From positions 3,270,001 to 3,302,000 of the forward strand of contig CP001848.1 in NCBI GenBank assembly GCA_000025185.1: 32,000 nt of DNA. The letters run 5' to 3'. Shown here piece after piece: positions 20,349-31,102 of this stretch. Positions within the stretch are counted from its first letter, which is position 1, and each line of letters starts with the position of its first letter. This stretch comes from Pirellula staleyi DSM 6068. Lineage in GTDB: Bacteria > Planctomycetota > Planctomycetia > Pirellulales > Pirellulaceae. The notes under the pieces were generated by a model, which did no database searches, had not been told where the DNA came from, and saw only the letters and a program-made list of their open reading frames with translations. The position numbers and the translations under genes are program-made.

Positions 20349-20669
20349 ATGGAAGATCGCGACGAAAACCCTCTGAAGATTCCCAAAAAACCTTCCCCGG
20401 CGACGATCACGCAACTGGGATGCGGCCATCTCGTGATTTCCATAGCGGTGGCTTGTGCACTGCTCCTCTTCAACGGCCTCACGGTCAGCAGTGTCTACTC
20501 CGGATGGGCCTCGCGACTCTCCGATTTCTGGCGCGAGCCCCGCATCGCCCAATCGATTCTGTTTCTCGGTCCGATTCTGCTGCTGGTGTTTCAGTGGTGG
20601 ATCTACGATCTGTTTCTCGATCGTTTTTGGCCCGCTCGTAAACGTGTGCAGTTCTCTTCGCGAAAGTAA
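20349..20669 (+). CDS. Hypothetical small membrane protein (two predicted TM helices)
   Basis: Hydrophobic helices LVISIAVACALLLFNGLTV and ILFLGPILLLVFQWWIY. It ends 47 bp before the large cytochrome gene. I recognise no family. Confidence 0.45.
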   Translation: MEDRDENPLKIPKKPSPATITQLGCGHLVISIAVACALLLFNGLTVSSVYSGWASRLSDFWREPRIAQSILFLGPILLLVFQWWIYDLFLDRFWPARKRVQFSSRK

Positions 20670-20715
20670 TGCACGCCACGCATCCCCCGCACCACTTGCT
20701 CACGAGACCAATTTC

Positions 20716-23700
20716 ATGCCTCGCTTCGAGCTTTCCGTTTCGCGCTATTGGTGGATGCTGCTCGCGCTCGTGGGGTTCGTAGCACTCGCTTGCTCCGCGA
20801 GCACTGCGTCGGCTCAAGACGAGGACGACGAGACTCTCGATCCATGGCTCCCCGGGCTACTCGCTAAATACAGTGTCGATGCGAAGTCGGCGGTCCGAGT
20901 GGAGTCGAATCTCTCGCTCGTATGGCCCGAGAAACGAGTCGACGCGCGATTGCCTGCAGCTGATTTCACCGCGATCTATTCCGGTCATCTCCTTGCGCAA
21001 GGCAACGGCAACTATCAGTTCGAGGCCTATGTTCGTGGCGATGTAAAAATCATCGTGGCTGGCAAAACGGTGCTAGAAGGTTTAAGCCCGAAACCGGCCT
21101 GGATCGCGGGACAGCCGATCGAACTGTCTTTTGATCATCATCCAATCACCATCGAGTATCGATCATCCGGTGAGAATCCGGAACTGAGACTTTTTTGGCG
21201 TGGTCCTCAGTTTGCACTCGAGCCAATTCCACCCCGGTTTCTCTTTCACGATCGAACGCAGCATCCTCCGCTCGAACTCAAGCGTGGCGAGTCGCTGGCG
21301 CACGCGCTGCGCTGTGGTGCATGTCATCGCGATGAGCTGGCAACTGCAGATGCATCGATTCCCGCTCCTTCACTTAAGGAGCAGCTGGCATGGCTCCAGG
21401 CCGACTGGATCGTCCAGCATTTGTTGCAAAAACCCGCACGCGATTCTCAGCTCGAATCGCGTCGTATGCCGCAGTTTGCAATCTCCGAAAAGGAAGCAAA
21501 CTTGCTGGCTCGTTGGCTAACGAATGTCGAAAGCTCGGATGAGAAAGCAGAGGTCGAAACGCCACCGCCGAGTAATCCTCAACCATCAACAACCCAAGAA
21601 ACTCCCGCCAAACCTAGGCCGAGCAAAGAGCAAGGGGAACTGCTGATCGCATCGCTCGGTTGCTTAGCATGTCATCATCGTGGCGAACTTGGTCAGGCTG
21701 GTATTTGGGGCGGAACATCGCTCGACGATGTTGCCAAAAAACGTCCCGCAAACTTCGTCGCTACTTGGCTCTCCGATCCATCGAAGGTCAATCGAAATCA
21801 TCGCATGCCAGTGTTCGATCTATCGTCCGACGAGATCAGCTCGATCAGTAAGGCGCTTAGTAAATCGCCTGTAGCAGAGCCGAAATCATTACCGCTCGAC
21901 GACAAACAGAAGGCAGAAGCAATTGCACTAGCGACCAAGTATCGCTGCCACCTTTGTCACGAATTGCCAAGCACTCCGGCACCTTTCGATGCACAAGCGG
22001 TGAAGCCGCTTTCCAAGACGACCGACTGGAAGCGCAGCTGCGCTAGTCTTCCAGATAGCTCGGGCGACAAGCCTGCCTATGGAGTGGCTCGCGAGGATGC
22101 GGAGGCTATAGCCGCCTGGTATTCATCGCGCGATCCGTCGTTCGCGATGTCGATAACAACGGGGGAACTCCTCCTCCAGCGCAGCAATTGTTTGGCCTGT
22201 CACCAGCGCGAAGGGATCGACCGAAGTAGCTGGCAGCTGACGCATTCCTTGGCCGAGAAACTATCCGCGATCACCGAAGCGTATGCCCAGTTGCCAGCGA
22301 TTCCGATACTAACGCCCCCGGCACTCAACAGCGTGGGTGATAAGTTTCACGAACAAGCACTCACTGCTGTGATCCGTCGACAAGATCGGCCGCATCGCCC
22401 CTATTTAGCAGTGCGCATGCCACGTTTTCCACTCGCCGCCAGCGAGCTTACGCATTTGACGGCGCACCTCATCTCGGCCGATCGAATTCCAGATCGTGCG
22501 AGCGAGTATCTCATCGAGCAGCATTCGCCGAGCACGGTGAAAGTTGCTGGCAGTCGGCTCGTCACCACCGATGGGTTTGGTTGTACCAGTTGCCATCAAG
22601 TCGGATCGGTGCTCCCTGCCAATGCGCCAGCCAATGCCCGCGGCCCCAGTCTTTCGATGCTGGATTCCCGAATTCGTCGTGATTGGTTTGATCGCTGGGT
22701 CCGAAATCCGCAACGGATTGTTCCGCGCATGGAGATGCCTTCAGTCCAGCTGGCGGTGAAGGGGGTGCTCAACGATCACTTGCCTTCGCAACTCGACGCA
22801 GTCTGGAAAGCCCTCAATCAAGAGGGTTTTGAGCCACCACTTCCCAACCCGGTGCGCACGCTCCGTTTGAGTGGCACCACGACGGAAAAACCGCTCGTAC
22901 TCACGGATGTAATCGAGCTCGATAAATCGTTTGGCCGCGATAAGCCGCTAGTTCGTCCGTTCGCTGTTGGGTTTTCGAACCGGCACAACTTAGTTTTCGA
23001 TCTTGCAGCAGGCTCTCTACTCGATTGGCGAAGTGGCGATCTCGCGCGACAACGAACACGCGGTAAAACGTGGTACTGGGAACTCGCTGGAGCCAGCCTC
23101 GTGAAACCACGACTTTCTGGAAGTGAGTTTGCACTGCTGATTGACGGAAAAAAACTCCTTCCGTCACAGCAGTCCGATGGTGTGATGCGGCTTGAGTCGT
23201 GGGAGATGCGCGATGAAGGAACACTCTCGCTCAGCACCACACTCTTGTGGGAACCAGATCCCCTCGAGGGCTCTCCAAAAGATCTGCGAAACTTTGTCCC
23301 CCTCGCTCAGTATTTCGAGCCTCGCCCCGCGCTCCAGGGAACAACCGGTATTCGTCGCACGCTTCATGCAGCAGGAATTCCTGATTGGGCTGAACTAGTG
23401 ATGCAGCTGATCGATCCAGCGATCGCAGCAAAAGCGAAGTTCGATCCCGATCATGGTCGTTTAGCACTTCCCGAAAGCGAATGCTATTTGGAAATTGTGC
23501 AGCAGCGTGAGGGACGAAGTCGTGCCGAGTATCGCGCCGATGGTGCGCTAGTCGTGAAGCCTGTCGATGGTATCGTTGATGTTACCATCGATTATGTGAC
23601 GACCACGGCAATCGATCTTTATCCCGGCGCAGGCAGCGAGAGCTTTCCGGTCGAGGCTGCCCAGGTGGAAGTCGCAACCGGTTTGCAGGCAGAGCGTTTG

Positions 23701-25059
23701 CCTTTGTGGGGCGATATCATGCCGACCGCGATCGCTTACGACGAAGCTGGACGCATGCACTTCGCGTCGCTCAAAGGACAGGTCTTCGCAGCTGTCGACA
23801 ACGACGGCAATGGAAGTGAAGACACACTCGAGCTACTGGCCGACGGACTTCCCGCTCCTTACGGAATTGCAGTCGAGCCCAGCCGCGTGCTGGTGCTTGC
23901 GAAGTATGGTCTCGTGGCATTGCATCACCGGGTATCGAGGGAGCGCTTGTCGAAGTTCAGCATTGCCGCTTCGGGCTGGGGCTATACGGCCGACTATCAC
24001 GACTGGGCTGTGGGACTTCCGAGCAACGGTCGTGGTGGCTATTTCGTGGCAATTCCTTGTCAGCAAGATAAGCGTTCTGCCAGTGAAGCTCGCTTGCGTG
24101 GCAAGTTCCTCGAACTATTGCCGCGTGATCCCACGGAAGATGACCCTTCTCGATTTGCGATTCGTGTGATGAGTGCTGGGCACCGATTTCCGATGGGCCT
24201 CGCGCGGTCGTCGCAGGGAGAGATCTTCGTTACTGATAACCAAGGGAACTACAACCCGTTCAACGAGCTGAATCATGTGGAGCAAGGTTCGCACTTTGGC
24301 TTTGTGAACTCGCTCGAGAAAGAAGCCAAAACGCCAGTTCCACTCCTGAAGGCTCCTGCCATCGACATTCCTCATCCGTGGACCCGAAGTGTCAACGGTA
24401 TTACATTTCTCGAAACGCCCGCCAAGCTCAAGGCCGAGAAGGGGAGCCTGTTTGGTCCATGGGAAGGGCATCTCGTCGGCTGTGAGTACGACACGCGACG
24501 ACTGATTCGGATGTCGCTCGAGAAGATCGATGGTGTGTTTCAAGGAGCCGCTTATCCCCTTAGCGGCGTGGCAGGAGAAAACGGCTTGTTGGGTCCTGTC
24601 GTTGCGACAATCAGTCCCGCTGGAGAACTGGTGGTGGGCAACTTGCGCGATAGTGGGTGGGGCGCCGGGAATAACATCGGCGACATCACGAAAATCAAGA
24701 TCGATCCCAATCAGCTCCCCGCAGGTGTCGCTGAAGTAACGATTGACTCGCAAGGTTTTCGTATCGCTTTTACGAAACCGGTGGATGCCGCTAAAGCGAC
24801 CGACGTGAAGTCCTACACCATCAGCCACTATCGACGCGTCAGTACACCGGCCTATGGCGGCGCTGATATCGATCGTCGTGATGTTACGCCGCTCTCGGCG
24901 ACACTTAGCGACGATCGTCGTAGTGTGCTGCTGCAGCTTTCGAAGTTAGAAACCGGTGTGGTGTACGAGATTCAGCTGAAGAATCTCACCACCAGTGGGA
25001 AGGACGAATTCTTTCCCGCCGAGGCCCACTATACCGTTCGCAAATTACCGCCCAAGTAG
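20716..25059 (+). CDS. Secreted PA14 domain / pentahaem c-type cytochrome / dehydrogenase-like beta-propeller protein (Pirellula-Verrucomicrobium type)
   Basis: The start is ATG 20716, giving MPRFELSVSRYWWMLLALVGFVALACSASTASA (signal peptide). A PA14-like segment follows (YSGHLLAQGNGNYQFEAYVRGDVKIIVAGK...ELRLFWRGPQF). There are five CxxCH sites: 21313, 21661, 21946, 22189 and 22582. Four are followed by an RMP-like distal Met motif (RRMPQF, HRMPVF, VRMPRF, PRMEMP). The C-terminus contains propeller-like blocks (DNDGNGSEDT, FVTDNQGNYNPFNELNHVEQGSHFGF) and a terminal beta-sandwich-like segment. Confidence 0.85.
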   Translation: MPRFELSVSRYWWMLLALVGFVALACSASTASAQDEDDETLDPWLPGLLAKYSVDAKSAVRVESNLSLVWPEKRVDARLPAADFTAIYSGHLLAQGNGNYQFEAYVRGDVKIIVAGKTVLEGLSPKPAWIAGQPIELSFDHHPITIEYRSSGENPELRLFWRGPQFALEPIPPRFLFHDRTQHPPLELKRGESLAHALRCGACHRDELATADASIPAPSLKEQLAWLQADWIVQHLLQKPARDSQLESRRMPQFAISEKEANLLARWLTNVESSDEKAEVETPPPSNPQPSTTQETPAKPRPSKEQGELLIASLGCLACHHRGELGQAGIWGGTSLDDVAKKRPANFVATWLSDPSKVNRNHRMPVFDLSSDEISSISKALSKSPVAEPKSLPLDDKQKAEAIALATKYRCHLCHELPSTPAPFDAQAVKPLSKTTDWKRSCASLPDSSGDKPAYGVAREDAEAIAAWYSSRDPSFAMSITTGELLLQRSNCLACHQREGIDRSSWQLTHSLAEKLSAITEAYAQLPAIPILTPPALNSVGDKFHEQALTAVIRRQDRPHRPYLAVRMPRFPLAASELTHLTAHLISADRIPDRASEYLIEQHSPSTVKVAGSRLVTTDGFGCTSCHQVGSVLPANAPANARGPSLSMLDSRIRRDWFDRWVRNPQRIVPRMEMPSVQLAVKGVLNDHLPSQLDAVWKALNQEGFEPPLPNPVRTLRLSGTTTEKPLVLTDVIELDKSFGRDKPLVRPFAVGFSNRHNLVFDLAAGSLLDWRSGDLARQRTRGKTWYWELAGASLVKPRLSGSEFALLIDGKKLLPSQQSDGVMRLESWEMRDEGTLSLSTTLLWEPDPLEGSPKDLRNFVPLAQYFEPRPALQGTTGIRRTLHAAGIPDWAELVMQLIDPAIAAKAKFDPDHGRLALPESECYLEIVQQREGRSRAEYRADGALVVKPVDGIVDVTIDYVTTTAIDLYPGAGSESFPVEAAQVEVATGLQAERLPLWGDIMPTAIAYDEAGRMHFASLKGQVFAAVDNDGNGSEDTLELLADGLPAPYGIAVEPSRVLVLAKYGLVALHHRVSRERLSKFSIAASGWGYTADYHDWAVGLPSNGRGGYFVAIPCQQDKRSASEARLRGKFLELLPRDPTEDDPSRFAIRVMSAGHRFPMGLARSSQGEIFVTDNQGNYNPFNELNHVEQGSHFGFVNSLEKEAKTPVPLLKAPAIDIPHPWTRSVNGITFLETPAKLKAEKGSLFGPWEGHLVGCEYDTRRLIRMSLEKIDGVFQGAAYPLSGVAGENGLLGPVVATISPAGELVVGNLRDSGWGAGNNIGDITKIKIDPNQLPAGVAEVTIDSQGFRIAFTKPVDAAKATDVKSYTISHYRRVSTPAYGGADIDRRDVTPLSATLSDDRRSVLLQLSKLETGVVYEIQLKNLTTSGKDEFFPAEAHYTVRKLPPK

Positions 25060-25068
25060 CCAGCGCTC

Positions 25069-25548
25069 TTAAGTCTGTTCGAGCGAGAAGGTGCTGAAGG
25101 CAACATCCTTGAGCAATCGTTTTTGCAGCACGCGATTGATCGAGAGGACCATTTCGCTCTTCAAAAAGGCCAGGCTCGGGTCTGCGAGTTGCTCGGTCTC
25201 GACGCGCTGAACCAGTCCGATCACCGAGTCGCGAATTCGTTTTTCGTAAGCTGGCAGCGAGGCTGTAATCTCTTCCTGTGAATCTTCGGGGAGCACTCCG
25301 TAGAGCTCGAACGAAACCATCAGCACCCCGTCGGGCGTGGCGTGACTGACCCGAAATTTGCCGAGCGATAGTTCGACGTAGTGCTTCGGGTCATGACGCC
25401 GCTGCTGTTCTTCCAGTAGATCGAGCAACTCTGCAGGAGCCATCGCTGGTTGAGCAGGGGCCGATGAACCGCAGCCAGCTAGGCCTACAACGCTTGTCGC
25501 GAGCAGCAGTGTCCAGCTGATGTTTCGAAGATTGAAAAAAGTGAGCAT
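25069..25548 (-). CDS. Lipoprotein with FliL-like (flagellar basal-body-associated FliL family) domain
   Basis: Lipobox LLLATSVVGLAGC. The mature part, HYVELSLGKFRVS...LMVSFELYGVLPEDSQEEI...YEKRIRDSVIGLV...EQLADPSLAFLKSEMVLSINRVL...LKDVAFSTFSLEQ, follows the FliL pattern. That pattern is y-v-l-f-v-N, an alternating strand, e-l-p-iRd, eL-G-LK-ei-in, and dV-ft-F. The family call is by eye only. Confidence 0.65.
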   Translation of the reverse strand: MLTFFNLRNISWTLLLATSVVGLAGCGSSAPAQPAMAPAELLDLLEEQQRRHDPKHYVELSLGKFRVSHATPDGVLMVSFELYGVLPEDSQEEITASLPAYEKRIRDSVIGLVQRVETEQLADPSLAFLKSEMVLSINRVLQKRLLKDVAFSTFSLEQT

Positions 25549-25728: not shown

Positions 25729-27339
25729 TTACTCGGGAGATGCAGCCGCACGAACGTCGTAAAGTGGTTGATGCCGGTAGTAAACCTCGAGGATCATGGT
25801 GGCGAGTGCTGTATCGCAAAGACGTCCACCAGCTGTCGTGTGGGGGTCGGCAAAGTACCAACTTCCTAGCTCGTGTCCATCGCTTGCTTGCGACTGCGTT
25901 AAGTGATCGCGCAGCGTGTTGTTCCAGTCGCTCCACTTCTCGTGGTGCAAGTGATGTAGCACTTGTGTGGCATAGTAGTTGAAGTACATGTCGTCGCGCG
26001 AAGGACCTAGCGACACTAGCATCTTGGCACCACGCTGCAGCCGCTCGTCATCGCGTCGCCAACCTTCGTACATGCGGCAGAGGAGCCCAACCGCCGTGCA
26101 GGTGGGATGAGGCTCGCGACCTTGATAGCCGAACTCGGCACCACCGCGTGAACTGCAGTGATCGAAAAAGCTGCTCGTGCGGACCAGCGTTGTTTCGGGA
26201 ATGGAGAGTCCGGCTAGTTCGCCACTACGTAGTGCCATCCGTTGCCAGCCGGTCACGAGCGTGTCCCCCGGTTGTCCGGGAAAATAACGCCAGCCGCCAC
26301 GAAAATGCTGGTTGCTGGTGATAAACCGAATCGATTGACTTGCGGGATCGAGCAGCTGGTCGTCGTGCGTCATCGCCAGAAGTTCGCACAGGACGATGGT
26401 CGCGAGACCATGACCGTACATCGTTCCCTCTTGCAGATCGAGTCCACGCGAAGTGAGCGATCCACGCTCGAGCAGGTAGGTAACGCCCCGAGTAACTTGC
26501 TCTTGATAGGGACCGCTTTGGTGCGTGTTTCCCGCCCCGAGAAATGGAAGTAGTGCCAGCGCAGTCGCTGCTGTTGTCGACCGGTCGGAGCCTTCATCGC
26601 GACATTGCCCACGGCACTCGCCTCGATGATGGTGAAAGTTCCAGCTTCCATCGCTCAGTTGATGCACGGCGAGCCAGGCAAGTGCTCGCTCGACAGCGCG
26701 TTCGCTTTGGGGTGTGCCGCCGAATCGATCGACCAGCGGCCCGCGCGCCGACTCCGTTCTCCCTGCGAGACCTCCGCCCGTGGGAAGGTTGGTAAGCTCT
26801 CCCAGCGACTCATGCGGCTGAAAGAGTGTGGCGTCGAGCGCCGCTGAGATCTCGGGGCGATACGACTCGGCTCCTGCAAGTACCGAAGGAATATCGAGTG
26901 GCAGCGTGGTGAGTGCAGGGCTCTCCAGGAGATCGGCCTCCAGTGGTAAGCCAGCGGGCGTGTCGAGTGGTGGTGGCTTGAGCGTGAATTCGATTGGTGG
27001 TTGCTCTTGCTCGACGACCATCGGCAGCGATCGCTCAAACTCAATTGCAATCGTGCGATCGCTTGGCGTCGGTGCGGTCGCTGCCAGATGCAAGCGAGCC
27101 CCTGTAATCACGATCGCCAGATGTGCGAAGCTGCTGAGCAAAATTGCCCACAGTCGGACTTGCGTTTGCCAAGTAGTGAGACGCGAATCGCCTGTTTTGC
27201 CACGCGCACGACCGACCGATAGCACAAACGAAGTGCGCTTGGCGGCTCGAGTTGGCGAAGTGACAGTCATGCGAATCGTCATGGTCGTAGTGATTGTCAG
27301 GTCTCTACGAGCAAGCGATGCGCGCAGGAGCTGGCGCAA
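25729..27339 (-). CDS. TM-anchored protein with C-terminal QW-repeat prenyltransferase/squalene-cyclase-like (alpha/alpha-toroid) domain, paralogue B
   Basis: One TM helix (LWAILLSSFAHLAIVITG), a Pro/acidic linker, then ALAWLAVHQLSDGSWNF, ALLPFLGAGNTH, MYGHGLATIVLCELLAMTHD, GGWRYFPGQPGDTLVTGWQRMAL, GLLCRMYEGW, MYFNYYATQV and ATMILEVYYRHQPLY. The start is uncertain: TTG 27339, ATG 27282 or ATG 27270. Confidence 0.85.
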   Translation of the reverse strand: MRQLLRASLARRDLTITTTMTIRMTVTSPTRAAKRTSFVLSVGRARGKTGDSRLTTWQTQVRLWAILLSSFAHLAIVITGARLHLAATAPTPSDRTIAIEFERSLPMVVEQEQPPIEFTLKPPPLDTPAGLPLEADLLESPALTTLPLDIPSVLAGAESYRPEISAALDATLFQPHESLGELTNLPTGGGLAGRTESARGPLVDRFGGTPQSERAVERALAWLAVHQLSDGSWNFHHHRGECRGQCRDEGSDRSTTAATALALLPFLGAGNTHQSGPYQEQVTRGVTYLLERGSLTSRGLDLQEGTMYGHGLATIVLCELLAMTHDDQLLDPASQSIRFITSNQHFRGGWRYFPGQPGDTLVTGWQRMALRSGELAGLSIPETTLVRTSSFFDHCSSRGGAEFGYQGREPHPTCTAVGLLCRMYEGWRRDDERLQRGAKMLVSLGPSRDDMYFNYYATQVLHHLHHEKWSDWNNTLRDHLTQSQASDGHELGSWYFADPHTTAGGRLCDTALATMILEVYYRHQPLYDVRAAASPE

Positions 27340-27482: not shown

Positions 27483-29132
27483 TTAGAGTGGGAACTCTTC
27501 TTCAGCTGCAGCCTTGCCGTAAATCGGCATGTGGCGGTAGTACACTTCGAGAATCATCGTGGCCATGCTGGTGCAGTAGATACGACCACCAGCTTCCGAG
27601 CCGTGATCACCCTTCATGTACCAGCTTCCCTTTTGGTGACCGGTTTTGTCCTGGCCATTGACCAGCGAGTCACGCATTTCCTTGTTCCACTTGTCCCACA
27701 GTTCTGCACCTTCACCACCTTCACCGCCGTAGTGACGCATCACTTGGGTGGCGTAGTAGTTGAAGTACATGTTCCCCTTCGAAGGGCCAATCTTGCTGAT
27801 GAACTCAGCACCACGCTGAATGCCGGGGTGATCTTTCTTCCAGCCGAGATACATGCGGCAGAGGAGACCGCAAGCGGTGGTGGCTTGACCAGCACCTGGA
27901 CCAGTGTAGCCATACTTCGAGCCGCTGTCGGCTTGCACGCTGTCGAGGAACTTCACAGCACCTTGAATCGTGCCGGGAGGAACTTGGAGGTAGGCCATGT
28001 GACCGCTCTTGAGAGCCATCAACTGCCAACCCACAGCCGAAGTGTCGCCAGCTTGGCGTGGGGTGTAACGCCAGCCGCCACCGACAGGGTCTTGAGCGTA
28101 GACAATGTGGTTAAGCGACAGCTGAGCTGGGGTCATCAAGCCTTTGTCGTGGGTCATGGCGTAGGCTTCGCACAGCACGATCGAGGCGAGGCCGTGCGAG
28201 TACATGTTGCCGCCACCTTGGGCCAAATCGCCAGCGTTGTTCTTCACCTTCATTTGGCTGGTGAGGAAGTAGAGGCCAGCTTCGACGTTCTTCTTGTAGG
28301 TTCCAGCCTTGTGCGTCTGACCAGCACCCAGGAAGGGGAGCAAAGCCATGGCAGTGGCACCGGTGCGGCAATCGGTCATACGTCCACCATCGCTGCAGCG
28401 CCCTTGGCAGGGGCCGGTGCGGTGGTCGAAGTTCCAGCTTCCATCGGGATTTTGGTGAGCGGCGAACCACTGAAGTGCAGCGGCCACGGCAGCTTCACTG
28501 GCACTATTGCCACCAATCTTGGCGACCATTGCGCCACGGGCAGCTTCACCACGCCCTGAAACGCCACTGCCGGTCACCGAGCCGACGGCTTGCATCAGGT
28601 CGTTCTTGGGGGCGGTTTGTTCGCCGAAATCACTCAGTTCGACATGCACAGCAGCGGTGTCGACATCCATCGCCAAGGAGGGATCGACAGGTGTTTCAAC
28701 CACATCGCTTTGAATCTGCGCGACGACATCGGAGCGAGTGTCGGAGACATTGGTCTCGTCGACGTTGATTTCGATTTTGTCTTCGACGAAGTCTTCCACT
28801 TCCTCGAGTTCTTCGGTCTTGGTGGCAGTCACAGCCACTTGGTTTTGCTGCTTGGGTGGCTCGATCGTGATCACCGCCAGGATGATGAACGCGAAAAAGT
28901 GCACCACGGCCGAAACCATGTAGCTAGGCACGGCGTTAAAGAGGACGAACTTACCGCCACCGCCACTGGGGGCATCATCGGCCTCCTCCTCGGGAGCTGC
29001 TGCCGCTGGCTGCTGTGGCTTGGCAGGCTGAGAAGCCGCCGCAGCAGGAGCTGGCGCCTTGCGAGCTGGAGGTGGCGCAGGACGCGCACCCTGTGGCTGG
29101 CCAGGATTAGGAGGGGTGGGAGTGGTGCTCAT
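27483..29132 (-). CDS. TM-anchored protein with C-terminal QW-repeat prenyltransferase/squalene-cyclase-like (alpha/alpha-toroid) domain, paralogue A
   Basis: Pro/Ala-rich N-terminus, one TM helix (YMVSAVVHFFAFIILAVITI) and an acidic linker. Then ALQWFAAHQNPDGSWNF, ALLPFLGAGQTH, MYSHGLASIVLCEAYAMTHD, GGGWRYTPRQAGDTSAVGWQLMAL, GLLCRMYLGW, MYFNYYATQV and ATMILEVYYRHMPIY. A GGAG lies 9 nt upstream of ATG 29132. Confidence 0.9.
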   Translation of the reverse strand: MSTTPTPPNPGQPQGARPAPPPARKAPAPAAAASQPAKPQQPAAAAPEEEADDAPSGGGGKFVLFNAVPSYMVSAVVHFFAFIILAVITIEPPKQQNQVAVTATKTEELEEVEDFVEDKIEINVDETNVSDTRSDVVAQIQSDVVETPVDPSLAMDVDTAAVHVELSDFGEQTAPKNDLMQAVGSVTGSGVSGRGEAARGAMVAKIGGNSASEAAVAAALQWFAAHQNPDGSWNFDHRTGPCQGRCSDGGRMTDCRTGATAMALLPFLGAGQTHKAGTYKKNVEAGLYFLTSQMKVKNNAGDLAQGGGNMYSHGLASIVLCEAYAMTHDKGLMTPAQLSLNHIVYAQDPVGGGWRYTPRQAGDTSAVGWQLMALKSGHMAYLQVPPGTIQGAVKFLDSVQADSGSKYGYTGPGAGQATTACGLLCRMYLGWKKDHPGIQRGAEFISKIGPSKGNMYFNYYATQVMRHYGGEGGEGAELWDKWNKEMRDSLVNGQDKTGHQKGSWYMKGDHGSEAGGRIYCTSMATMILEVYYRHMPIYGKAAAEEEFPL

Positions 29133-29746: not shown

Positions 29747-31102
29747 TCAGACCCCCAGTGAATTCCCCGGCGATGCGGGAGAACGCTTCAGCCAGCGGCT
29801 CGACCTCAGGCGATCGAGCCCCACAGCGGCGAGAATCACAAGCCCCAGCATGATCCGCTGGGTTTCGGTGTTGAGTCCCAGCAGGTTCATTCCGTTGGCG
29901 ATCACTCCCAGGATCAAGCTTCCAATCAGGGTGCCGCGCAGGGTGCCTTCGCCTCCGGAGAGGGAAGTTCCGCCCACCACCACGGCGGCGATGGTTTGCA
30001 GTTCGTAATCCTGTCCGTAGGTCGCGGCCCCACTTCGCAGCTGCGAGGCGTAAACCACTCCTCCGAGTCCAGCGAGGGCTCCGCAAAGGGCATAGATCAC
30101 CACCAGCAGACGCTCGGTTCGTATGCCACATAGCACCGCCGCTCGTGGATTGCCACCGAGTGCATAGAGGTGCCGGCCGAACACCGAACGCTGCAGCAGA
30201 AGTTCGCAAACGCCAAACACAACACCCATTAGCACCACGCAATTGGGGATTCCCAGCAGCGTCGCGCCGTTGCCGAGCCACCCCAGCGAAGGTGGAACCT
30301 GGTTGATCGATTTGCTTTCGGAGATCAAAAACGAAAGCCCCCCGACGATCAGCATGGTTGCCAGCGTGACGATGAACGGCGGCATCTTCAGTAGCGCGAT
30401 GATCGTTCCGCTGGCTGCTCCAACGGCGGCACACACAAGTATCGCCGTGAGTCCGCACACAACCATGCCGATGGTGGAAGCTTGCTCGGCGCCAGCATAG
30501 TCGCGAATCAGTCGCGTCATCACCACGGCAGAGAGTGCCACTAGACTCCCCACCGATAAGTCGATCCCTCCACTGATGATCACGAGAGTCATACCAACCG
30601 CCAGAATCGAGATCACCGCGATTTGACTCGTGATGTTGATCAGGTTCTCGCTCTTGAGGAAAGCAGGCCAGTAGTAGCTCGTCGCGCTGACGACCGGAAT
30701 CGGCTGATCGACCCCCAGCAACTCATTCGCTTGAGAAACAGGAACCCACGCTGACGCCACGCGATGACAGACAATCGCATCGATCGACTTCTTCTCCTTC
30801 TTCAGCTCGCGGAGCATGTTGCCCACATCAATCGGGGTTCCTTCGACTTTGGCAACCACTTCGAGGCCACTCTCAACGAGCTGTTTTTCGCACGCTGCTG
30901 TGAAGGCCCGATCGCTTTCGGTTCCGCGAGCTACCACCAAAATTCGCTGGGCCTTTGGGTAACGCGCTACGAGCGATCTGGCTGCTTCGTTTCCCCCCGA
31001 GGCCCCTTCGGGAGATTGTTCGCGCCAGGTGAGGATGCTGAGCGTTAGCGCGAGCACCAGCAGTGCGACAATCAGTTCTGTACCTGGAGGAAATCGTCGC
31101 AT
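29747..31102 (-). CDS. Sugar ABC transporter permease (RbsC/AraH-like) with ~120-aa insertion after TM1
   Basis: Core motifs FLKSENLINITSQIAVISILAVGMTLVIISGGIDLSVGS and YALGGNPRAAVLCGI...GGTSLSGGEGTLRGTLIGSLILGVIANGMNLLG. The extra segment spans aa 27-146. Confidence 0.9.
   Translation of the reverse strand: MRRFPPGTELIVALLVLALTLSILTWREQSPEGASGGNEAARSLVARYPKAQRILVVARGTESDRAFTAACEKQLVESGLEVVAKVEGTPIDVGNMLRELKKEKKSIDAIVCHRVASAWVPVSQANELLGVDQPIPVVSATSYYWPAFLKSENLINITSQIAVISILAVGMTLVIISGGIDLSVGSLVALSAVVMTRLIRDYAGAEQASTIGMVVCGLTAILVCAAVGAASGTIIALLKMPPFIVTLATMLIVGGLSFLISESKSINQVPPSLGWLGNGATLLGIPNCVVLMGVVFGVCELLLQRSVFGRHLYALGGNPRAAVLCGIRTERLLVVIYALCGALAGLGGVVYASQLRSGAATYGQDYELQTIAAVVVGGTSLSGGEGTLRGTLIGSLILGVIANGMNLLGLNTETQRIMLGLVILAAVGLDRLRSSRWLKRSPASPGNSLGV

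Follow-up and report, generated by a model that had tools for sequence, protein, structure and literature searches.

A TonB-like Ser-x3-His membrane helix in two toroid-domain paralogues of Pirellula staleyi suggests a class of motor-coupled envelope proteins

Could a protein with a C-terminal domain entirely different from that of TonB be a client of the same kind of proton-driven motor? The question is raised by a stretch of 32,000 nucleotides from Pirellula staleyi DSM 6068 (contig CP001848.1 of assembly GCA_000025185.1, positions 3,270,001 to 3,302,000 of the forward strand), which was analysed as a whole and is called the window below; all positions are those of the window, and the features lie on its minus strand unless a plus strand is given. 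The window encodes two paralogous proteins, A and B. Paralogue A (27483..29132, 549 aa) is an open reading frame (ORF) with an identical gene call on four public contigs. Paralogue B (25729..27282, 517 aa) is given here with the start used by the gene callers on public contigs, its ORF reaching 27339. The two proteins are 38% identical and have a common architecture. Our analysis suggests that A and B are probably inner-membrane-anchored periplasmic transducers, coupled to a motor in the manner of TonB and TolA and carrying an (alpha/alpha)6 toroid as their C-terminal domain.

As a preliminary description of the window had pointed out, the two membrane helices have a Ser placed four residues ahead of a His; the positions it claimed for these residues proved exact when the codons were read, and the pair lies toward the cytoplasmic end of the hydrophobic stretch. 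In A, Ser74 (TCG, 28911..28913) and His78 (CAC, 28899..28901) belong to the translated helix region NAVPSYMVSAVVHFFAFIILAVITI (28863..28937). The membrane helix itself covers residues 69-87, PSYMVSAVVHFFAFIILAV (28872..28928), according to a hydrophobicity scan and an AlphaFold2 (AF2) model, in which the helix has a predicted local distance difference test (pLDDT) score of ~90. In B, Ser50 (AGC, 27133..27135) and His54 (CAT, 27121..27123), read from the translation, lie within the membrane-helix region RLWAILLSSFAHLAIVITGAR (27094..27156).

The motif of TonB extends beyond this pair. The register named SHLS is Ser-x3-His-x6-Leu-x3-Ser, represented in TonB by S16, H20, L27 and S31 (PMC12215075). 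In the E. coli Ton and Tol motors, as resolved by cryo-electron microscopy, Ser16 and His20 of TonB and Ser18 and His22 of TolA touch a Ser and a Trp in the first transmembrane helix (TM1) of ExbB or TolQ (PMC12215075). The preliminary description caught only the Ser/His half of the register. A matches all four positions: Ser74 is its first residue, His78 is the counterpart of TonB His20 and TolA His22, Leu85 (28878..28880) stands at His+7, and Thr89 (28866..28868) stands at His+11, with Thr replacing the final Ser. Written in the same register, the helices read PWPTLLSVCIHGAVVAGLLYTS in TonB, RAIIISAVLHVILFAALIWSS in TolA (both from PMC12215075) and PSYMVSAVVHFFAFIILAVITI in A. In this register the likeness to TonB covers all four positions for A and is confined to Ser and His for B, in which Gly61 occupies His+7. 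We find that the Ser-x3-His helix of A and B is supported as a putative TonB-like motor-docking signature.

The motif is strongly conserved among relatives of A. Among its 120 best homologues, at 58-88% identity, S-x3-H was found in the helix of 118, the two exceptions having a signal-peptide-like or a truncated N-terminus. Over the 118 full-length orthologues, the Ser is kept in 117, the His in 117, Leu or Met at His+7 in 117 (92 Leu and 25 Met) and Thr or Ser at His+11 in 83 (74 Thr and 9 Ser). A Pro five residues before the Ser (116/118) and an Ala at His+8 (114/118) are also common, and the helix positions outside the motif are mostly free to vary. A mixed alignment of 114 sequences at ~38-87% identity to A gives the same picture, with S74 and H78 each at least 90% conserved and most of their helix neighbours variable. 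The homologues of B have S-x3-H in 89 of 119 cases, and the distant, general members of the B type keep it well (..SF[LV]VSLVVHxxLLLLLAL..). When the N-terminal 150 residues of the A-type and general B-type profiles were compared, they matched with a probability of 97.5% and E = 7e-12, Ser aligned to Ser and His to His. Conservation among orthologues, the check that the preliminary description had proposed, thus holds for A and only in part for B, whose close relatives often lack the Ser.

We estimated the background rate of the motif in the same planctomycete loci, from 791 membrane-helix-like hydrophobic segments in 1049 unrelated ORFs. S-x3-H occurs in five of them (0.6%), and the full pattern S-x3-H-x6-[LM]-x3-[ST] in none of the 791. 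The earlier argument that the motif had not arisen by chance is borne out by these rates, by its near-invariance in the A orthologues and by its presence in 120/120 homologues of a third subfamily described below. Two longer relatives of A and B, P0002 (821 aa) and P0232 (809 aa), have a signal-peptide-like N-terminus in place of the S-x3-H anchor, and may be secreted or otherwise tethered versions of the toroid.

What follows the helix also resembles TonB and TolA in its general layout. The AF2 model of A (mean pLDDT 78.9) has a disordered tail at residues 1-68, the helix at 69-87, a disordered linker from 88 to ~190 and a compact, all-helical domain at ~190-535 with pLDDT >90. The tail is rich in Pro and Ala and predicted to be cytoplasmic. 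The model of B shows a long helix at residues 33-69 that holds the membrane segment, disorder at 75-161 and the toroid at ~170-510. Both proteins therefore have a flexible linker of ~100 residues at pLDDT <50. The linker of A (residues 91-190, 28563..28862), predicted to be periplasmic, is below this value over most of 110-187. Its composition per 100 residues is V16 E12 D11, i.e. acidic and Val-rich with 5% Pro, and that of the B linker is P15 E11; the Pro/Glu-rich spacer of the preliminary description is found in B and not in A. In the A linker, a short run of alternating hydrophobic residues (NQVAVTAT) occupies positions 8-15 past the helix and may be the counterpart of the 'motor box' strand of TonB and TolA, a concept taken from PMC12204202.

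The families of B and C, the third subfamily, carry a positive charge excess just before the helix (net charge +2.5 and +3.2, respectively), which points to an N-in/C-out orientation. The flanking charges of A give no such cue, so its orientation is taken from homology to B and C, by which the toroid of A would be periplasmic as well.

Compared with TonB and TolA, then, A has a single membrane helix at its N-terminus, one face of which displays Ser-x3-His-x6-Leu-x3-Ser/Thr, and A and B have the long flexible linker, predicted to be periplasmic, and after it a globular C-terminal domain. The differences are that this domain is a toroid of ~340 residues rather than the ~90-residue domain of TonB and TolA, that A has a disordered cytoplasmic tail of 68 residues and an acidic rather than Pro-rich linker, and that the genes of A and B lie away from motor genes. 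No TonB domain was matched in A or B by Pfam or NCBIfam at E <= 0.1, so neither belongs to the TonB_C family.

A direct association of the toroid family with motor genes was found in the third subfamily, C, which has more than 1300 members. One divergent family member (locus L082, 671 aa, 174 bits to each of A and B by phmmer) belongs to C and is encoded directly after exbD in an operon of the order TPR-MotA_ExbB-ExbD-toroid. Four more C members on long contigs (L093-L096) have the same operon, with the Pfam domains MotA_ExbB and ExbD as given by the database. We then scanned metagenomes for C-type genes and considered each distinct one that had 1.7 kb or more of sequence upstream. In all 31 such loci exbB lies immediately upstream, exbD was found in 27 of them, and a TPR gene often comes first. 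The position directly after exbB-exbD is a further likeness to TonB and TolA, and a membrane helix ahead of the S-x3-H helix is a difference: C proteins have two membrane helices, and it is the second, ..KCVVLSVLAHVWLLMYALG.., that carries S-x3-H in all 120 homologues. A clade of C (L102, L103, L108-L116 and L128) has Ala instead of the motif Ser (..LAVVAHVWLL.., ..LAFLAHVWLL..) and always retains the His, which suggests that the His is the indispensable residue.

We also compared the ExbB proteins of the C operons with the E. coli protein, using E. coli reference sequences and the residue numbers of PMC12215075. The equivalents of Ser34 and Pro190, which belong to the network contacting Ser16 and His20 of TonB (PMC12215075), are each kept in 33 of 37 proteins, and the pore threonines are kept too. 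A second recurrent association of toroid and motor, of another design, was seen in two giant proteins encoded directly 3' of exbB-exbD, L150:2216-6109 (+) and L165:1104-6812 (+), of 1297 and 1902 aa. In the L150 protein Pfam recognises TolB-like PD40 beta-propeller repeats plus a toroid domain; the N-terminus of the L165 protein resembles that of the L150 protein, and it too has a toroid match. Both have a single N-terminal helix without S-x3-H.

The anchor of A and B is shared with another protein family. When every ORF of the fetched loci was searched with a hidden Markov model of the A or B anchor, one match to a member of another protein family was obtained, L039:7000-9141 (+). It encodes a protein of 713 aa with the anchor ..LVSMVVHLTVLIVLAVL.. 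and a vWA domain, and it stands directly upstream of an A-type gene in a metagenome-assembled genome (MAG) of Thermoguttaceae. Of the few remaining non-family matches, one was to the N-terminus of a B-type protein cut off by the end of its locus, and the others were weaker and apparently spurious. This agrees with the published vWA transducers with an SHLS helix in PVC bacteria, i.e. Planctomycetes, Verrucomicrobia and relatives (PMC12204202), and vWA and toroid proteins appear to share the SHLS anchor as a module. The published transducers resemble A and B in having a non-TonB C-terminal domain after an SHLS helix and a disordered linker, and their PVC operon, consisting of TPR, tolQ-like and tolR-like genes and the transducer, mirrors the TPR-exbB-exbD-C operon. 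The difference is that A and B have the toroid in place of the vWA domain, for which Pfam gave no match in either, so that they are not vWA transducers, and that the C operons have one exbD and not a heterologous pair. Toroid, cyclase and prenyltransferase domains are not mentioned in PMC12204202.

Several observations weigh against motor coupling of A and B. The 32 kb window has no homologues of exbB, exbD, tolQ, tolR or motA, and exbB/exbD lie within 10 kb in only three of 80 A-type loci. B lacks the Leu and the final Ser of SHLS, and its nearest orthologues often have the His without the Ser (..ALHVNL..) or, in a few cases, neither (..ITIPANLL..). The A family has a net charge of -0.7 before the helix and no positive cluster, which leaves its topology without independent support. 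The anchor of C matches that of B only weakly (E = 1.6e-3, probability 16%) and gives no profile match to that of A, and the S-x3-H of C may for this reason be convergent and not inherited. The equivalent of Trp38 is not conserved in the planctomycete ExbB of the C operons.

Part of this evidence would be expected if the helices were ordinary signal anchors, the Ser and His serving some other intramembrane contact, either in a hetero-oligomer of A and B or with an unrelated partner, and only C using ExbBD. At nearly every locus the genes of A and B show no linkage to motor genes: no conserved motor gene stands beside them in twelve public contigs or in the 80 genome loci, and an exbB-exbD-exbD unit in L024 and L026 was rejected as a linkage, being 8 kb off and behind unrelated genes. 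The weak or absent similarity of the C anchor to those of A and B fits this explanation as well. So does the sole recurring neighbour of A and B: where the sequence reaches far enough, in 63 A-type loci, a second family gene lies directly downstream in 19, suggesting that the A and B products act together. Against it, A fits all four SHLS positions and not just Ser and His, and a vWA protein of the kind published as a transducer bears this anchor too. Many genomes, e.g. that of Anatilimnocola aggregata (L005), have A without B, yet the motif is still kept. Separation from the motor genes is also seen in E. coli, where tonB is unlinked to exbBD, and we draw the parallel with A and B as unlinked motor clients. 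On balance we consider the signal-anchor explanation rather unlikely.

The toroid itself suggests another explanation, in which A and B are membrane-tethered enzymes, similar to terpenoid cyclases and prenyltransferases or acting on glycans, and the Ser and His handle a lipid-linked substrate. The toroid of A covers residues 191-535 (27528..28562) in the AF2 model. In the 114-sequence alignment, many of its Trp, Tyr, Arg, Glu, Asp and Gln positions are invariant, which favours an enzyme and is compatible with a ligand-binding pocket. An invariant CxxxC pair lies in a toroid loop within DGSWNFDH..GPCxGRC (C242 and C246 of A, 28395..28409; C223 and C227 of B, 26602..26616) and might form a disulfide in the periplasm or bind a metal. 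Pfam gave weak, partial matches to the squalene-hopene cyclase repeats PF13243 and PF13249, at 21.1 bits for A (cut-off 26.1) and 32.9 bits for B, and some relatives are named 'terpene cyclase/mutase family protein' in public records. Foldseek matched the toroid to single-domain squalene-hopene-cyclase-like proteins, GH76 mannanases, AprG, cellobiose 2-epimerases and, weakly, complement C3b. A and B share with the alpha-alpha toroid superfamily of squalene-hopene cyclases and prenyltransferases, which includes the thioester domains of C3 and alpha2-macroglobulin, the fold class and the QW-like repeats (DGSW, GGWRY).

These similarities are generic on closer inspection. The Pfam matches span just 50-90 residues of repeat, a profile search of the PDB sequences with the toroid matched repeat units of ~50 residues of cyclases, and the Foldseek matches are generic (alpha/alpha)6 toroids with identity of 9-16% and a target-normalised TM-score (template modelling score) of ~0.6. 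Because only generic toroids and repeat-level matches were obtained, the PDB matches give no functional assignment. The DxDD motif is absent from A and B, and D.DD occurs in the toroid region of only one of the 114 aligned members; the C.EQ thioester motif is also absent from A and B. The scores against TIGR01507 are 20-37 bits with a cut-off of 431. We therefore rejected a class II terpene cyclase, for lack of DxDD, for a single toroid instead of the two-domain beta-gamma fold and for scores below the TIGR01507 cut-off, and also an alpha2-macroglobulin/C3 thioester domain, for lack of a CGEQ-type motif and for the weak C3b fold match. A and B further differ from this superfamily in being membrane-tethered and periplasmic, the side of A being taken from its homologues. 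With ~100 disordered residues separating the toroid from the helix, the Ser and His cannot belong to an active site, and an enzymatic toroid would itself fit motor coupling. We consider the tethered-enzyme explanation improbable. Both it and the contact with a different partner fit less well than motor coupling, given that A matches all four positions, that a vWA protein has this anchor, that a long disordered linker parts helix and toroid, and that catalytic motifs are missing. The last explanation, that two hydrophobic helices share the Ser-His spacing by chance, which two proteins alone could do at a background of 0.6% per helix, can be dismissed with near certainty, since the motif is near-invariant over hundreds of orthologues at 40-88% identity while its helix neighbours vary, and since it recurs throughout subfamily C.

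If A and B are motor-coupled transducers, as we think probable, the helix would use its Ser/His face to dock externally on a proton-driven motor of the ExbB5-ExbD2 (TolQR) type, whose genes would lie elsewhere in the genome. Pulled or rotated by this motor, the helix would pass the force along the linker to the toroid, and the toroid would grip some component of the envelope, for instance a glycan, peptidoglycan or an outer-membrane protein. With its full SHLS register, A is the better candidate for a direct client of the motor, and B, with its degenerate motif and its frequent tandem arrangement with A, is possibly a second or accessory subunit.

The surroundings of A and B contain one further gene with a possible connection to motors. 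A gene of 159 aa at 25069..25548, 180 nt downstream of B, encodes a LAGCGS lipoprotein-like signal and then a FliL domain, assigned by Pfam (PF03748) at 28.1 bits, above the cut-off of 24.6. The lipoprotein signal stands where FliL usually has a membrane helix. FliL proteins usually associate with MotAB stators. The gene is possibly co-transcribed. We rejected it as a conserved partner because its adjacency to A and B is confined to contigs of this species, even at E <= 10. Convergent to it lies a gene at 20455..25059 (+) for a protein of ~1450-1530 aa, with cytochrome c domains in the N-terminal part and a GSDH/DUF7133-like region in the C-terminal part. Near the C operon of L096, possibly by coincidence, there are a smaller gene that combines cytochrome c with GSDH and a large one for DUF7133/GSDH/cytochrome c. 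On the 5' side of A, after a gap of 614 nt, are genes for a permease of the ATP-binding cassette (ABC) type and a periplasmic binding protein. The permease (29747..31102) has its BPD_transp_2 domain at residues 154-427, preceded by an N-terminal extension of ~150 residues that consists of a membrane helix and then a soluble segment and is atypical for the permease family.

The family is large. We counted more than 5000 homologues of the A type, representing more than 5000 clusters at 90% identity, which is a lower bound, and the public relatives of A and B are Planctomycetota throughout, chiefly Pirellulaceae. The MAG records of three contigs with A-type genes (L049, L056 and L075) say Candidatus Nealsonbacteria or Candidatus Kuenenia; the Nealsonbacteria label especially resembles a binning error.

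To our knowledge, TonB and TolA were long held to be the sole clients of ExbBD/TolQR motors. A study of 2025 added clients with vWA domains (PMC12204202). Our literature searches, which paired the toroid family with force transducer, squalene, prenyltransferase or ExbB/ExbD, brought up no work on it, and a toroid class of transducers appears to be undescribed in the literature searched. Our finding suggests a further, very large class of motor clients, whose working end would be an (alpha/alpha)6 toroid, and presents the SHLS helix as a portable docking module that evolution has joined to unrelated periplasmic domains.

The host phylum makes such a class relevant, as canonical TonB is scarce there and its envelope biology is little understood. 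A survey of 2012, whose text names Scalindua profunda, identified TonB in no more than four of the Planctomycetes genomes that it searched, and refers to previous work in which R. baltica was reported to lack it (PMC3422733). We tentatively propose, as a possibility that we hold with less confidence than the motor coupling of A and B, that the toroid family (A, B and C), with thousands of members in Pirellulales and related orders, provides the main proton-motor-driven trans-envelope transducers of planctomycetes, replacing the mostly missing TonB and TolA. If so, the family would power a planctomycete-specific envelope process, e.g. the gripping and import of glycans or other macromolecules, or alternatively the tethering of the outer membrane across an enlarged periplasm. 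His78, Ser74 and the TPR-exbB-exbD-toroid operon offer a mutable handle on the proton motors that work at the planctomycete envelope.

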